DNA of 64,000 nt from Escherichia coli (GTDB lineage Bacteria > Pseudomonadota > Gammaproteobacteria > Enterobacterales > Enterobacteriaceae), in the NCBI RefSeq assembly GCF_003790525.1, contig NZ_CP033635.1; one strand, given 5' to 3'. Made by a program: the position numbers and the translations under genes. Every line of letters begins with the position of its first letter. The first letter of the stretch is position 1. The notes beneath the pieces are model-generated. The model was not told the DNA's origin and made no database searches. It was given only the letters and a program-made list of their open reading frames with translations. Of the stretch, positions 2,281 to 52,335 are shown in pieces.

Positions 2281-3576
2281 ATGGTTAGTTTAGAGAAGAA
2301 CGATCACTTAATGTTGGCGCGCCAGCTGCCATTGAAATCTGTTGCCCTGATACTGGCGGGAGGACGTGGTACCCGCCTGAAGGATTTAACCAATAAGCGA
2401 GCAAAACCGGCCGTACACTTCGGCGGTAAGTTCCGCATTATCGACTTTGCGCTGTCTAACTGCATCAACTCCGGGATCCGTCGTATGGGCGTGATCACCC
2501 AGTACCAGTCCCACACTCTGGTGCAGCACATTCAGCGCGGCTGGTCATTCTTCAATGAAGAAATGAACGAGTTTGTCGATCTGCTGCCAGCACAGCAGAG
2601 AATGAAAGGGGAAAACTGGTATCGCGGCACCGCAGATGCGGTCACCCAAAACCTCGACATTATCCGCCGTTATAAAGCGGAATACGTGGTGATCCTGGCG
2701 GGCGACCATATCTACAAGCAAGACTACTCGCGTATGCTTATCGACCACGTCGAAAAAGGCGCACGTTGCACCGTTGCTTGTATGCCAGTACCGATTGAAG
2801 AAGCCTCCGCGTTTGGCGTTATGGCGGTTGATGAGAACGATAAAATTATCGAATTCGTTGAAAAACCAGCTAACCCGCCGTCAATGCCGAACGATCCGAG
2901 CAAATCTCTGGCGAGTATGGGTATTTACGTCTTTGACGCCGACTATCTGTATGAACTGCTGGAAGAAGACGATCGCGATGAGAACTCCAGCCACGACTTT
3001 GGCAAAGATTTGATTCCCAAGATCACCGAAGCCGGTCTGGCCTATGCGCATCCGTTCCCGCTCTCTTGCGTACAATCCGACCCGGATGCCGAGCCGTACT
3101 GGCGCGATGTGGGTACGCTGGAAGCTTACTGGAAAGCGAACCTCGATCTGGCCTCTGTGGTGCCGGAACTGGATATGTACGATCGCAATTGGCCAATTCG
3201 CACCTACAATGAATCATTACCGCCAGCGAAATTCGTGCAGGATCGCTCCGGTAGCCACGGGATGACCCTTAACTCACTGGTATCCGGCGGTTGTGTGATC
3301 TCCGGTTCGGTGGTGGTGCAGTCCGTTCTGTTCTCGCGCGTTCGCGTGAATTCATTCTGCAACATTGATTCCGCCGTATTGTTACCGGAAGTATGGGTAG
3401 GTCGCTCGTGCCGTCTGCGCCGCTGCGTCATCGATCGTGCTTGTGTTATTCCGGAAGGCATGGTGATTGGTGAAAACGCAGAGGAAGATGCACGTCGTTT
3501 CTATCGTTCAGAAGAAGGCATCGTGCTGGTAACGCGCGAAATGCTACGGAAGTTAGGGCATAAACAGGAGCGATAA
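2281..3576 (+). CDS. glgC: glucose-1-phosphate adenylyltransferase (431 aa)
   Basis: Track ORF 2245-3576; start trimmed to ATG 2281 ([17 protein letters not shown]...), giving the canonical length; nucleotidyltransferase motif GGRGTRL. Confidence 0.95.
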
Positions 3577-5009
3577 TGCAGGTTTTACATGTATGTTCAG
3601 AGATGTTCCCGCTGCTTAAAACCGGCGGTCTGGCTGATGTTATTGGGGCATTACCCGCAGCACAAATCGCAGACGGCGTTGACGCTCGCGTACTGTTGCC
3701 TGCATTTCCCGATATTCGCCGTGGCGTGACCGATGCGCAGGTAGTATCCCGTCGTGATACCTTCGCCGGACATATCACGCTGTTGTTCGGTCATTACAAC
3801 GGGGTTGGCATATACCTGATTGACGCGCCGCATCTCTATGATCGTCCGGGAAGCCCGTATCACGATACCAACTTATTTGCCTATACCGACAACGTATTGC
3901 GTTTTGCGCTGCTGGGGTGGGTTGGGGCAGAAATGGCCAGTGGGCTTGACCCATTCTGGCGTCCTGATGTGGTGCATGCGCACGACTGGCATGCAGGCCT
4001 TGCGCCTGCGTATCTGGCGGCGCGCGGGCGTCCGGCGAAGTCGGTGTTTACTGTGCACAACCTGGCCTATCAAGGCATGTTTTATGCACATCACATGAAT
4101 GACATCCAATTGCCATGGTCATTCTTTAATATTCATGGGCTGGAATTCAACGGACAAATCTCTTTTCTGAAGGCCGGTCTGTACTATGCCGATCACATTA
4201 CGGCAGTCAGTCCAACCTACGCTCGCGAGATCACCGAACCGCAGTTTGCCTACGGTATGGAAGGTCTGTTGCAACAGCGTCACCGTGAAGGGCGTCTTTC
4301 CGGCGTACTGAACGGCGTGGACGAGAAAATCTGGAGTCCAGAGACGGACTTACTGTTGGCCTCGCGTTACACCCGCGATACGTTGGAAGATAAAGCGGAA
4401 AATAAGCGCCAGTTACAAATCGCAATGGGGCTTAAGGTTGACGATAAAGTGCCGCTTTTTGCAGTGGTGAGCCGTCTGACCAGCCAGAAAGGTCTCGACC
4501 TGGTGCTGGAGGCCTTACCGGGTCTTCTGGAGCAGGGCGGGCAACTGGCGCTACTCGGCGCGGGCGATCCGGTGCTGCAGGAAGGTTTCCTTGCGGCGGC
4601 AGCGGAATACCCCGGCCAGGTGGGCGTTCAGATTGGCTATCACGAAGCATTTTCGCATCGCATTATGGGCGGCGCGGACGTCATTCTGGTGCCCAGCCGT
4701 TTTGAACCGTGCGGCTTAACGCAACTTTATGGATTGAAGTACGGTACGCTGCCGTTAGTGCGGCGCACCGGTGGGCTTGCTGATACGGTTTCTGACTGTT
4801 CTCTTGAGAACCTTGCAGATGGCGTCGCCAGTGGGTTTGTCTTTGAAGATAGTAATGCCTGGTCGCTATTACGGGCTATTCGACGTGCTTTTGTACTGTG
4901 GTCCCGTCCTTCACTGTGGCGGTTTGTGCAACGTCAGGCTATGGCAATGGATTTTAGCTGGCAGGTCGCGGCGAAGTCGTACCGTGAGCTTTACTATCGC
5001 TTGAAATAG
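3576..5009 (+). CDS. glgA: glycogen synthase (477 aa)
   Basis: [22 protein letters not shown]... with KTGGL motif; ATG overlaps the glgC stop (TAATG). Confidence 0.95.
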
Positions 5010-18672: not shown

Positions 18673-21384
<2,712 letters not shown>

Positions 21385-34018: not shown

Positions 34019-34246
34019 TTAACAGGAAACCGCTTCCACTTCTAATAAGGCCAGATCTTTTTTGCGTAATACCAGGCTCACACGACGGGTTTCGATATGA
34101 ATGGGGTCGCCGAGTGGAGCGACGCGCACCACATTAAAAGAGGAGCCAGGTAACATGCCAAGAGAAAGCAGTTTTTGGCGATATGCCGGGCTGATTTCAC
34201 GGGAAAAGCCAGTGATTTTCCACGCAGTATCTGGAGTGTATTGCAT
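34019..34246 (-). CDS. feoA: ferrous iron transport protein FeoA (75 aa)
   Basis: Small SH3-like FeoA ORF directly upstream of feoB. Confidence 0.9.
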
Positions 34247-34355
34247 AGGTGCCTACTTGTTTCTCATTAACTGGATAACTACCTCATGGGGCGTTTGACA
34301 GCGACATGAGACCAGATGATTTGCCAACGAAGGAGAGATTAAATAATCAACAGTA

Positions 34356-34374
34356 CAATGATAATGAGAATGGT
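34356..34374. promoter_or_regulatory. candidate Fur box in the feoABC promoter
   Basis: caATGATAATGAGAATGGt matches about 12 of 17 positions of the Fur consensus GATAATGATAATCATTATC, about 110 nt upstream of feoA. A TTGAT-N4-CTCAA FNR-like motif lies at 34436-34449. Confidence 0.4.
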
Positions 34375-34575
34375 TTCTATCAGCAATACTTAAAATGTGT
34401 GTGAATGTTGGTTTGAATAATAATCTGACTCAATGTTGATATGGCTCAAGGTTATATCGCAGCGAAAATATAATTCGCATGACGAATTATTAGGGCTGGT
34501 TAATGTTTAATTAAGGTTTCAGTTGTTAATGAAATGATAAATATTAACGGGATATATTATGAGTTTGCTTGTGGA

Positions 34576-34603
34576 ATAAAAAGGCCGGAGATATTCTCCG
34601 GCA
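34576..34603 (-). terminator. rho-independent terminator downstream of tex
   Basis: Hairpin ggccggag atatt ctccggc with an A-run on the plus strand (a U-run on the minus-strand transcript). Confidence 0.5.
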
Positions 34604-34683
34604 CTTTTATGTCAGGCAAGGCGTTCGTTGCCAGATGTGGCGTGAACGCCTAATCGCGCAGGTTTAGGGGCCAGTCCGGGCGT

Positions 34684-37005
34684 TTAACGTTTTTTGCCCA
34701 TTGCCGCCGCCAGCGCATCCATCATCGCGCTATTACCGGCAGGCTGCGCTTCACGCCCACGCGGTTTGGCTGCCGGGCGGTTGTTCTGCGGACGTTCATT
34801 ACCGCCGCCGCGACGAGCGTTGGTTTCGCCAGGCTGCTCGTCCAGACGCATAGTCAGGGCGATACGTTTGCGCTGAAGATCCACTTCCAGCACTTTCACC
34901 TTCACAATATCGCCCGCTTTCACCACGGTATGCGGATCTTCCACAAACTTGTTCGACAATGAAGAGATGTGAACCAGGCCGTCCTGATGAACGCCAATAT
35001 CGACAAACGCGCCAAAGTTGGTGACGTTGGTCACCGCACCTTCGAGGATCATACCCGGTTGCAGGTCGTTCATCGTTTCGACGCCATCGGCAAACTGAGC
35101 GGTTTTAAATTCCGGACGCGGATCGCGACCCGGTTTTTCCAGCTCTTTGATGATGTCAGTTACCGTCGGTACACCGAATTTTTCATCAGTAAAGTCAGAC
35201 GCTTTCAGGTTACGCAACTCGCTGCTGTTACCCATCAGATCTTTCAGTGCCTGCTGTGTTGCTGCCAGAATGCGTTCCACCACCGGATAGGCTTCCGGGT
35301 GGACGGTAGACGCGTCCAGCGGGTTATCACCATGGTTAATGCGCAAGAAGCCCGCGCACTGCTCGAAGGCTTTCGGCCCCAGACGGCTCACTTTCAGCAG
35401 TTGCTGACGGTTCTGGAACTGACCGTTCTCATCGCGCCAGGCAACGATGTTTTGCGCCATCATGCGCGTCAGGCCCGCCACGCGAGTTAACAGCGGAACA
35501 GAAGCGGTGTTGAGATCGACGCCAACGGCGTTTACGCAGTCTTCTACTATTGCGTCCAGTTTGCGGGCCAGTTGCGTCTGGCTGACGTCATGCTGATACT
35601 GACCTACGCCGATAGATTTCGGATCGATTTTCACCAGCTCCGCCAGCGGATCCTGCAAACGGCGGGCTATAGACACCGCGCCACGCAGCGAAACGTCGAG
35701 ATCCGGGAACTCCTGTGCTGCCAGCTCGGAAGCCGAGTAAACCGACGCGCCAGCTTCGCTGACGATCACTTTCTGCGCGGTCACTTTCGGGAACTGCTTC
35801 TGCACGTCGAGATAGAAACGCTCGGTTTCGCGGGAAGCTGTACCGTTGCCGATCGCCACCAGTTCAACGTTATGCTTTTCACACAGGGCAGCAACGGTCA
35901 TCGCTGCTTTTGCGGCTTGTCCGGTATGTGGATAAATGGTATCGGTCGCCACCAGTTTGCCAGTTGCATCGACCACCGCTACTTTTACCCCGGTACGCAG
36001 ACCCGGATCGAGGCCCATCGTTGCACGCAGTCCGGCTGGGGCCGCCATCAGCAGATCGTGCAGGTTACGGGCAAAGACGTTGATTGCTTCATCTTCCGCG
36101 CGTTCGCGCACGGTGCCCATCAGTTCGGTTTCCAGATGCATCAGCACCTTGATGCGCCACGTCCAGCTCACCACGCCTTTGCGCCAGCTATCCGCCGGGG
36201 CATTGTTCAGGCGCAGGCCAAGGTGATCCATGATGATTTGCTCGCAATAGCTCTCTTTCGGCGGCTCTTCGAACTGCGGATCGGCATTCAGCGAAAGCTG
36301 AAGTATGCCTTCGTTACGCCCACGGAACATCGCCAGCGCGCGGTGAGAAGGCACCGTGGATAGCGGTTCGTGATGATCGAAATAGTCGCGGAATTTCGCC
36401 CCTTCCTCTTCTTTACCGCTCACCACCGTCGAAACCAAATGCGCGTTCTTCCACAGATAATCACGCACTTTTGCCAGCAGCGCGGCATCTTCGGCAAACC
36501 GTTCCATCAGGATATAGCGCGCGCCGTCCAGCGCGGCTTTGGTATCTGCCACGCCTTTATCTGCATCAACATATTGTGCAGCCGCGACTTCTGGCGTGTG
36601 TGACGGATCGCTCCACAGCAGGTCAGCCAACGGCTCAAGCCCTGCTTCAATGGCGATTTGCCCGCGGGTGCGGCGTTTAGGTTTGTAGGGTAGGTAGAGG
36701 TCTTCGAGTTCGGTTTTGCTTAAGGTGGCGTTGATGGCCTTCGCCAGATCATCGGTGAGTTTGCCTTGCTCGGAAATGGATTTGAGGATCGCCTGACGCC
36801 TCTCTTCCAGCTCGCGCAGATAGCTCAGACGCGTTTCCAGATTACGCAGCTGCGTGTCATCCAGACCGCCGGTGATTTCCTTACGATAACGTGCGATAAA
36901 CGGCACGGTATTCCCTTCGTCAAGCAGGCGAACGGCAGCGTCAACCTGTTCCGGGCGCGCCTGAATTTCACCCGCAATAATGCGGCAGAACGAATCATTC
37001 ATCAT
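34684..37005 (-). CDS. tex: transcription accessory protein Tex (773 aa, S1 RNA-binding domain)
   Basis: Full-length ORF with a YqgF/RuvC-like fold, HhH and C-terminal S1 domain ([21 protein letters not shown]). Confidence 0.9.
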
Positions 37006-49782: not shown

Positions 49783-52335
49783 TCAGAACAATTCCTGTGC
49801 CTCGCCATTATCGATAATGGTCGTTCCCACCTCGTGCACCGCCTGTTGTGTCGGCTGCGTACCTTCGATGAAATACTCTTCGCGGCTGTTGCCACCATTA
49901 GCTAACTGCCCGGTGCTGCGATCGATATTCACCGTCACAATACCCGGCGGCGGCGTCAGCGGCTGCTCCGGCACACCTTCAAGAACGGCTTTCATATAAG
50001 CGTCCCATGCAGGCTGGGCACTCTTGGCACCGCCTTCGTAACCTGAGATCTGATCTTTAATCGCTCCAGAAGCCGTTGTATGACCGAGATTACGACGGTG
50101 ATCATCAAAGCCAATCCAGACCGAGGTCACAACGCCCGGACCGTAACCCGAGAACCACGCATCTTTCGAACTGTTAGTGGTACCCGTTTTTCCGCCTATA
50201 TCATGCCGTTGTAAATCACGACCTGCTCGCCAGCCAGTACCCTGCCAGCCTGGTTCACCAAAAATATTGGTGTTCAAGGCACTCTTAATCAGGAATGCCA
50301 GCGGTGTGTTGATGACGTGCGGTGCGTACTCCTGCGCGCCAGTCTTCGCCACTAACGCCTGATTTGCCTGCTCCAGCTGCGGCATTGGTACAGAAACATT
50401 CTGCTGCTCGCGGGAGATAGCGACATCTTCAACATCGTTATTTTCCAGAACGTTCGATTTCTGCGTATCACCGTAAATCACCGGAATATCGCATTCCGGG
50501 CAGGCTACTTTCGGTTTCGCTTCGAAAATCACGCCGCCCTGATCGTTTTCAATTTTGCTGATAAACCACGGGTCCACCAGGAAGCCGCCGTTCGCCATGA
50601 CCGCGTAGCCACGCGCCACCTGCATTGGGGTGAAGGACGCTGAACCCAGCGCCAGCGATTCGGTGTGGACAATGTTTTGTGCCGGGAAGCCGAAGCGTTG
50701 CAGATATTCTGCAGCGTAGTCGACGCCCATCGCCCGCATTGCGCGTACCATCACCACGTTTTTCGACTGACCCAGCCCCTGACGTAAGCGAATTGGACCA
50801 GCATATTGTGGCGGCGAGTTTTTCGGCTGCCAGTCAGAACCGGCACCTGCGTCCCAGCGAGAAATTGGCACATCGTTCAACATACTTGCCAGCGTCAGAC
50901 CTTTATCCATCGCCGCGGTGTAGAGGAACGGTTTGATGTTGGAACCCACCTGACGCAGTGCCTGGGTGGCGCGGTTAAACTTGCTCTGATTGAAATCAAA
51001 GCCACCGACCAGCGCCATAACGGCACCGTTTTGCGGATTGATCGACACCAGCGCCGAGTTCACTTCCGGCACTTGTGCCAGCCACCATGCATCGCCAACC
51101 TGACGAACCCAGATTTGCTGACCCGTTTGCAAAACATCGGTCACTTTACGCGGCGTCGGTCCCTGCTGAGTATCCGAACGGTAAGGACGCGCCCAGCGAA
51201 CGCCTTCCATACTCAATGCGACGGTCGACCCGTCCGCCAGCATCGCCGTCGCTTCCTGAGGATTGGCGCTGGTGACTGCGGCAGGCAGCAGAGGACCATA
51301 GGTCGGCAGCGCCTTCAACGTATCGGTAATCTTGTTGTTATCCCACGCCGATTCGCCCACTTTCCACAGCACATTTGCCGGGCCGCGATAGCCGTGGCGC
51401 ATGTCGTAGTCCAGCACGTTATTACGTACTGCCTGCTGTGCGGCCTGCTGTACTTTGCGGGTGATGGTGGTGTAAATGCGATAACCGTCTTCATAGGCAC
51501 TTTCGCCATAACGGTTATACATCTCCTGGCGCACCATTTCGCTCAGGTACGGCGCAGAGAAAACAATCTCCGGCGCGTGATAGTTAGCGTTAATCGCCTC
51601 AGTGTGTGTCTGATCGAACTGTTGTTGGGTGATATACCCTTCATCCAGCATCCGCGACAGTACGACGTTACGCCGCGCGACGGCACGATCCATTGAGTAG
51701 AGCGGATTAAAGGTGGAAGGCGCTTTCGGCAGCCCGGCTATCACCGCCATTTCGTTCAGCGTCAGTTGGTCGACCGTTTTACCGAAATAGACTTGTGCCG
51801 CAGCACCGACACCATAGGCGCGGTAACCGAGGTAAATCTTGTTCAGATAAAGCTCGAGGATCTCGTCTTTCGTCAGCAACTGTTCAATGCGAATCGCGAG
51901 GAAGACTTCCTTAATCTTACGCATCAGCGTGCGTTCTGGACTGAGGAAGAAGTTTCTCGCCAGCTGCTGGGTAATGGTACTCGCCCCTTGTGACGCGTGG
52001 CCGGAGAACAGCGCCACACTTGCCGCACGGAAGATCCCCACCGGGTCAACGCCGTGATGCTCGTAGAAGCGGCTGTCTTCCGTCGCGATAAAGGCTTTCA
52101 CCATCTCCGGCGGGATTTGATCCAACGTAACCGGAATACGACGTTTCTCACCGTATTGAGCAATCAGCTCGCCATCGGCGCTGTAAATCTGCATCGGAAT
52201 TTGCAGGCGAACATCTTTTAATGTCGCCACATCCGGCAGTTGTGGCTCGATGTAGCGGTATAGGCCATAAATCGAGCCTGCTCCCAGCAGAATGCAACAG
52301 ACTGCAAGGATCAAAAAATACTTTACGAACTTCAC
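49783..52335 (-). CDS. mrcA: penicillin-binding protein 1A (850 aa)
   Basis: Glycosyltransferase and transpeptidase motifs (SxxK ...SNIKPF..., KTGTT); N-terminus at a GTG codon (VKFVKYFLILAV) rather than the upstream ATG at 52359 used by the ORF track. Confidence 0.9.
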   Translation of the reverse strand: MKFVKYFLILAVCCILLGAGSIYGLYRYIEPQLPDVATLKDVRLQIPMQIYSADGELIAQYGEKRRIPVTLDQIPPEMVKAFIATEDSRFYEHHGVDPVGIFRAASVALFSGHASQGASTITQQLARNFFLSPERTLMRKIKEVFLAIRIEQLLTKDEILELYLNKIYLGYRAYGVGAAAQVYFGKTVDQLTLNEMAVIAGLPKAPSTFNPLYSMDRAVARRNVVLSRMLDEGYITQQQFDQTHTEAINANYHAPEIVFSAPYLSEMVRQEMYNRYGESAYEDGYRIYTTITRKVQQAAQQAVRNNVLDYDMRHGYRGPANVLWKVGESAWDNNKITDTLKALPTYGPLLPAAVTSANPQEATAMLADGSTVALSMEGVRWARPYRSDTQQGPTPRKVTDVLQTGQQIWVRQVGDAWWLAQVPEVNSALVSINPQNGAVMALVGGFDFNQSKFNRATQALRQVGSNIKPFLYTAAMDKGLTLASMLNDVPISRWDAGAGSDWQPKNSPPQYAGPIRLRQGLGQSKNVVMVRAMRAMGVDYAAEYLQRFGFPAQNIVHTESLALGSASFTPMQVARGYAVMANGGFLVDPWFISKIENDQGGVIFEAKPKVACPECDIPVIYGDTQKSNVLENNDVEDVAISREQQNVSVPMPQLEQANQALVAKTGAQEYAPHVINTPLAFLIKSALNTNIFGEPGWQGTGWRAGRDLQRHDIGGKTGTTNSSKDAWFSGYGPGVVTSVWIGFDDHRRNLGHTTASGAIKDQISGYEGGAKSAQPAWDAYMKAVLEGVPEQPLTPPPGIVTVNIDRSTGQLANGGNSREEYFIEGTQPTQQAVHEVGTTIIDNGEAQELF

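Follow-up and report, generated by a model that had tools for sequence, protein, structure and literature searches.

Enteric bacteria import ferrous iron chiefly through Feo, a system that also plays a part in gut colonisation and virulence; that Fur and FNR control it jointly has been established since 1993. The question raised by the DNA upstream of feoABC in the 64,000-nucleotide stretch of Escherichia coli DNA analysed here (hereafter the window) is where the two regulators sit with respect to the promoter, and whether the motifs recognisable there are working sites. A preliminary description made from the letters alone had placed a Fur-like 19-mer (34356-34374) and an FNR-like motif (34436-34449) in the feo leader. 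We conclude, with a probability of roughly 0.9, that the region is a sigma-70 feoABC promoter under joint oxygen and iron control. Control of this kind is already known biology, as the preliminary description had said in speaking of iron- and anaerobiosis-responsive regulation and as published K-12 Fur and FNR data support. The output of the present analysis is a precise promoter map in this strain's coordinates (Table 1), and the FNR site, the Fur operator and the spacing between them were shown to be conserved across about nine genera.

The operon is read on the minus strand of the window, a point on which the preliminary description had to be corrected, and the stretch 34247-34683 is the yhgF-feoA intergenic region, read from right to left. 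The limits given earlier for the feoABC upstream region were borne out by the neighbouring genes: the feoA ATG lies at 34246 and the yhgF stop codon ends at 34684, with feoA ending at 34019 and feoB extending down to 31681. All 437 bases of the region are 100% identical to E. coli SMS-3-5, and the RefSeq annotation of this identical sequence gives the gene order greB, yhgF (Tex family), feoA, feoB, feoC. The intergenic region was found in 5425 of 5426 complete E. coli genomes.

Published K-12 positions were carried over to the window through a gap-free alignment that runs from the terminator hairpin to feoA, the promoter-proximal 340 bp. The feoA ATG of K-12 lies at 3540163 in NC_000913.3, and positions were converted as window position = 34246 + (3540163 - position in NC_000913.3). 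For the FNR 14-mers of nirB and feoA, the coordinates listed by Myers et al. (2013) are each 1978 below those in NC_000913.3, which gave the offset between older and newer K-12 coordinates. The K-12 feoABC system (Kammler, Schon and Hantke 1993; Myers 2013; Seo 2014; Gao 2023) occupies the same locus with the same gene order, greB-yhgF-feoABC, and its Fur operator, -35 and -10 hexamers and FNR half-sites are identical to those of the window. Between 34356 and 34449, SMS-3-5 departs from K-12 at two bases alone, one in the FNR spacer and the other near 34403 (near -52); elsewhere K-12 differs in two bases at -3/-4, shortly before the start, and the REP element beside yhgF differs by 19 bp. None of these differences touches a recognised contact position.

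Mapping of K-12 transcripts (Mendoza-Vargas et al. 2009) placed a 5' end 105 nt before the feoA ATG, with the -35 hexamer within GTATTGCTG and the -10 hexamer within ATTATCAT. This start rests on one K-12 454 read, and its SMS-3-5 position, 34351, is a transfer by sequence. The ArcA site that Park et al. (2013) gave as -191 to -171 implies the same start within 1 nt. With this start, the best Fur register lies at -27 to -9 and the FNR site is centred at -91.5, so both motifs are promoter elements upstream of 34351 and not, as the preliminary description had it, parts of the leader. A generic promoter scan missed the feo promoter, TTGCTG and TATCAT falling below its rule; its sole candidate, at 34529-34558 on the plus strand, was weak and no better than expected by chance.

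Table 1. Positions, in the window, of the elements of the feoABC control region
Feature	Position	Strand	Evidence
Entire feoABC control region (yhgF (tex)-feoA intergenic region)	34247..34683	-	ORF list and RefSeq annotation
feoA coding sequence, first feoABC gene	34019..34246	-	ORF list and RefSeq annotation
feoA 5' untranslated leader	34247..34350	-	Start site and ATG
Transcription start (G), at -105 from the feoA ATG	34351..34351	-	K-12 454 read, transferred by gap-free alignment
-10 hexamer TATCAT, 17-nt spacer from -35	34358..34363	-	Mendoza-Vargas 2009; conserved in 29 taxa
-35 hexamer TTGCTG	34381..34386	-	Mendoza-Vargas 2009 sigma-70 assignment; TTG invariant across 29 taxa
Fur operator, overlapping Fur sites 6 bp apart	34354..34384	-	Fur matrix, ChIP-exo, Chen 2007, conservation
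In-phase Fur register	34354..34372		13/19 consensus matches
In-phase Fur register	34360..34378		13/19 consensus matches
In-phase Fur register	34366..34384		11-12/19 consensus matches
RstA/OmpR-like motif CCAACAttcaCACACA, -45 to -60	34396..34411	-	Named by Gerken 2020
Upstream Fur-like box, about -68 to -86, weak and unproven	34419..34437	-	6.9 bits; Chen 2007
FNR binding site TTGAGCCATATCAA, centre at -91.5 relative to the start (class-I-type position)	34436..34449	-	Matrix, K-12 ChIP-seq site, conservation
ArcA site TTGTTAATGAAATGATAAATA (plus-strand reading), -172 to -192	34523..34543	-	Park 2013 supplement, Gerken 2020; sequence identity
Two-way terminator hairpin ending yhgF transcription	34584..34602	both	Terminator scan

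The FNR-like motif was present where it had been described. It reads TTGATATGGCTCAA on the plus strand and TTGAGCCATATCAA on the feo strand, and 9 of its 10 half-site positions match the consensus. We scored it with a matrix built from 62 ChIP-bound K-12 FNR sites of Myers et al., with feoA left out. At 15.4 bits it ranked first in the 64-kb window and outscored 40% of the training sites (range 11.9-21.8 bits, median 15.7); about 0.3 hits this good are expected per 64 kb, with P=0.006 per 437-bp sequence of the same composition. The next-best matrix matches in the window were TTAAGCTGAATCAA at 19025-19038 (12.2 bits) and CTGATTGAAATCAA at 50986-50999 (12.0 bits). A search with the consensus allowing one mismatch found 5 matches in the window against 2.1 expected; such a match is unremarkable, and a consensus-only search is uninformative by itself. 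Furthermore, Myers et al. (2013) gave TTGAGCCACATCAA as the predicted site under the K-12 FNR ChIP-seq peak at feoA (PatSer 14.6). This 14-mer maps exactly onto 34436-34449 and differs in one spacer base, T in SMS-3-5 and C in K-12.

The Fur-like 19-mer at 34356-34374, CAATGATAATGAGAATGGT, was partly correct: it holds the true core GATAATGAGAAT (34360-34371), but the best classical register lies 4 bp to the right, at 34360-34378. Read against the classical 19-bp consensus GATAATGATAATCATTATC, the 19-mer as first placed matches at just 4-5 of 19 positions, that is, it is out of phase. Three in-phase registers (Table 1) follow one another at 6-bp intervals, as is usual for overlapping Fur sites, and the best of them runs through the spacer and into the -10 hexamer as far as its fourth base. 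The Fur matrix comprised 18 sites from 14 K-12 promoter regions, feoA left out, taking the best site per whole promoter region; its ryhB training site is probably wrong, since the sequence stretch used lacked the ryhB promoter. With this matrix, 34360-34378 scored 14.1 bits and ranked first in the window, against a training median of 16.1. By chance, 64 kb would yield about 0.46 Fur hits this good; at the local 34% G+C, P is 0.037 per 334 bp, which makes the score no more than moderately unusual for such AT-rich DNA. The second-best intergenic match, at 34530-34548 (9.5 bits, rank 7 in the window), overlaps the ArcA/OmpR site and is probably a chance match (P about 0.28 in the AT-rich stretch).

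The position of the operator agrees with published binding data. The K-12 Fur ChIP-exo footprint, seen in iron-replete cells only (Seo 2014; Gao 2023), converts to 34351-34384 (-33 to +1) and encloses the 19-mer of the preliminary description, just as the FNR ChIP-seq site coincides with the FNR position given there. The precision of the ChIP-exo position is uncertain, the ryhB entry of the same table looking about 100 bp off after conversion. In that table (PMC10164565 Supplementary Dataset 2, K-12 ChIP-exo), the converted ryhB, fecR/fecE and yncE peaks lie inside coding sequences, and the gene labels partly look shifted by one row. Use of ChIP-exo coordinates as Fur training data was dropped, the converted ryhB, fecA and yncE peaks lying inside coding regions at least about 100 bp from known promoters. 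Chen et al. (2007) predicted overlapping Fur sites of 10.9 and 13.4 bits at feoA and a separate site of 10.5 bits; mapped to the window, the 13.4-bit site is centred at 34366, the 10.9-bit site at 34372 and the 10.5-bit site at about 34425. In their model the single-dimer 9-1-9 sites are offset by 3 bp to each side of a classical box, and this geometry puts the centre of the classical box at 34369, the same as for the best register found here. The 19-mer first described is centred at 34365, no more than 1 bp from the centre of the strongest single-dimer site of Chen et al. (2007). According to the same authors, no Fur nuclease footprint exists at the feoA promoter, and no FNR footprint at this promoter was found in the literature either.

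A further Fur-like box, which the preliminary description missed together with the ArcA/OmpR site further upstream, lies at 34419-34437 and corresponds to the 10.5-bit site of the Chen 2007 model. It might be a working second operator, at which Fur would block FNR or the contact between FNR and polymerase, so that repression would be partly anti-activation. The box overlaps the FNR 14-mer by 2 bp, and its AAATTAWT core is kept in Escherichia, Citrobacter, Enterobacter, Leclercia, Trabulsiella and Yokenella; moreover, Chen et al. (2007) report two Fur boxes marked at feo by Kammler et al. (1993). The box reaches, however, just 6.9 bits with our matrix, about 1.1 such matches being expected by chance in the AT-rich stretch, the core is not kept in Klebsiella or Raoultella, and the ChIP-exo table lists one feoA footprint, with no separate peak for this box. 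We therefore regard a second operator here as unlikely, and take the overlapping sites over the spacer and the -10 hexamer as the Fur operator.

Next, the arrangement was compared across genera. A degenerate pattern of FeoA residues 8-25 found 32 loci in Enterobacteriaceae genomes, one of which had too little upstream sequence, leaving 31 usable. FNR and Fur matrix matches, each above 8 bits, were paired in 29 of the 31, carrying nine genus names; one of the 29 stands for the SMS-3-5-like E. coli relative set. The centre-to-centre distance between the FNR and Fur sites was 73.5 bp in 23 loci and 72.5 bp in 6, counts that include the added window sequence, and the predicted feoA leader varied from 32 to 107 nt in length. 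The block from -35 to -10 had a mean column identity of 0.94 (20 of 29 columns invariant), and the FNR half-sites likewise 0.94 (7 of 10 columns). Identity was 0.65 between the FNR site and -35 (2 of 49 columns invariant), 0.48 in the 30 bp upstream of the FNR site (0 of 30) and 0.58 in the first 25 nt of the leader (0 of 25). Conserved blocks between diverged flanks are the footprint expected of two working sites under constrained spacing. More speculatively, feo, with its strict 73.5-bp spacing between FNR and promoter across genera, would serve as a natural model for long-range activation by FNR of the class I type.

Three loci, those of Klebsiella sp. BIGb0407 (L020), an uncultured Enterobacteriaceae bacterium (L027) and Entomohabitans teleogrylli (L029), were without an FNR-Fur pair at 72.5 or 73.5 bp; in two of them the FeoA N-terminus diverges (MKLLPNS...), and about 125 bp separate the Fur box from a strong FNR-like site. 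Predicted feoA leaders in Enterobacter and Leclercia (L022, L024, L033, L035-L037) are just 32-37 nt long, those of Escherichia, Citrobacter and Klebsiella about 100-107 nt, and the roughly 70 nt from GGCAAATCATC to GAGAAAC (34259-34325, minus strand) look like an insertion or deletion in the leader.

A stretch directly after the start, GTTGATTATTTAAYCT (34350-34335, minus strand; +2 to +17 of the feoA mRNA), was kept in 14 of the 29 taxa. Its holders are Escherichia, Citrobacter, Enterobacter, Leclercia and Yokenella, even where the leader has lost about 70 nt, and do not include Klebsiella or Raoultella. The stretch scores below 4 bits with the Fur matrix. That it is an undescribed start-proximal element, acting as an extra operator (say, extended Fur binding or the unplaced NagC site) or in control at the RNA level, seems quite improbable. 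No structured leader emerged when the 105-nt leader and the first 15 coding nucleotides (34232-34351) were folded against shuffles (z=-0.10).

Most natural FNR-activated promoters are of class II, with FNR at -41.5. By this rule FNR would serve a second promoter whose start lies near 34401, some 41.5 bp downstream of the FNR site. The cells used to map the known start were probably below maximal FNR activation, and two promoters are reported for Yersinia pestis feo. A start near 34401, however, would have AACCAA (34413-34408) at -12 to -7, a poor -10 element, and the stretch between the FNR site and -35 in which it would lie is the poorly conserved one (0.65), while the conserved promoter and the FNR site stand at a fixed distance from each other in the 29 taxa. 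We consequently rejected a class II FNR promoter near 34401, for which no plausible -10 element and no conservation speak, as very improbable. The probability that both motifs are functionless chance matches in AT-rich intergenic DNA is negligible, since, common as Fur-like words are in such DNA and unremarkable as one-mismatch FNR consensus matches are by themselves, each motif is the top matrix match in 64 kb, in vivo binding is reported on near-identical K-12 DNA and both stand at a fixed spacing across about nine genera with their flanks diverging, so that ChIP data and conservation exclude chance.

For the sigma-70 promoter under joint oxygen and iron control, the following mechanism is proposed. 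RNA polymerase would use TTGCTG (34386-34381) and TATCAT (34363-34358), separated by the 17-nt spacer, and start at about 34351. In the absence of oxygen, FNR with its iron-sulfur cluster would bind TTGAGCCATATCAA at -91.5 and activate from upstream; to judge from position alone, it may contact the C-terminal domain of the alpha subunit in the manner of class I activators. ArcA and OmpR sites at about -172 to -192 would add to the activation. When iron is plentiful, Fe(2+)-Fur dimers on the overlapping sites from -33 to +1 would cover the spacer and the -10 hexamer, a position from which Fur would occlude RNA polymerase from the promoter. K-12 is where FNR and Fur have been shown to bind in vivo, where the start was mapped and where expression was found to depend on Fur and FNR; all of this is transferred here on the strength of sequence identity. 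Activation of feo by FNR and ArcA is stated in PMC3688515 and PMC4676285, and the latter limits Fur repression of feoA-lacZ to anaerobic growth. Repression shows mainly under anaerobiosis, since the promoter depends on FNR and ArcA. Myers et al. saw no clear FNR effect under iron-replete conditions, which they attributed to masking by Fur.

Comparison with other promoters places feo among known types. In class I FNR and CRP promoters the activator lies near -61, -71, -82 or -92; feo, with its site at -91.5 and the distance fixed across genera, is similar, and a contact with alpha at feo is what we infer from this likeness. The classical Fur-repressed promoters fepA-fes, fepD-entS, fhuF and cirA also have overlapping Fur sites 6 bp apart over -35/-10, bound in iron-replete cells only. 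Compared with these, the feo site is weaker (14.1 bits against the training median of 16.1), and its repression is mainly anaerobic. In Yersinia pestis the same operon, feoABC, has a Fur site over a promoter. Two promoters are described there, one of them Fur-repressible; the authors found that its DNA has no significant similarity to that of the E. coli region, and fnr and arcA mutations were without effect.

Further elements lie upstream of the promoter and around it. The ArcA site (34523-34543) contains the ATCAtttcattAACA motif, and in the gel-shift assay of Gerken (2020) the fragment with this motif was the only one shifted by OmpR; a fragment carrying only the RstA/OmpR-like motif was not shifted. 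At -45 to -60, ACATTCCGTCACAT is well conserved in Citrobacter, Enterobacter, Leclercia and Yokenella and resembles the Salmonella feo RstA box; the same columns in E. coli hold the diverged CAACATTCACACAC. An Rfam scan of the region returned sub-threshold matches only. Among these, STnc390, a Salmonella sRNA candidate for which a literature search found no paper, was rejected at 34550-34616 on the plus strand (29.6 bits against a gathering score of 50), its aligned part being approximately the terminator hairpin at 34584-34602, and naRNA4 (21.7 bits against 59.5) was explained by a REP element. This REP-type element, at 34612-34668, lies between the yhgF stop codon and the terminator and has 19 more bases in K-12 than in SMS-3-5; most E. 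coli variation of the intergenic region sits in it. Finally, in the urine isolate E. coli EC488 (NZ_CP109874.1, locus L050 at 3124-3876), the intergenic region stops after the terminator and is followed by IS1 and rtcB, and the feo promoter and feoABC appear to have been deleted.
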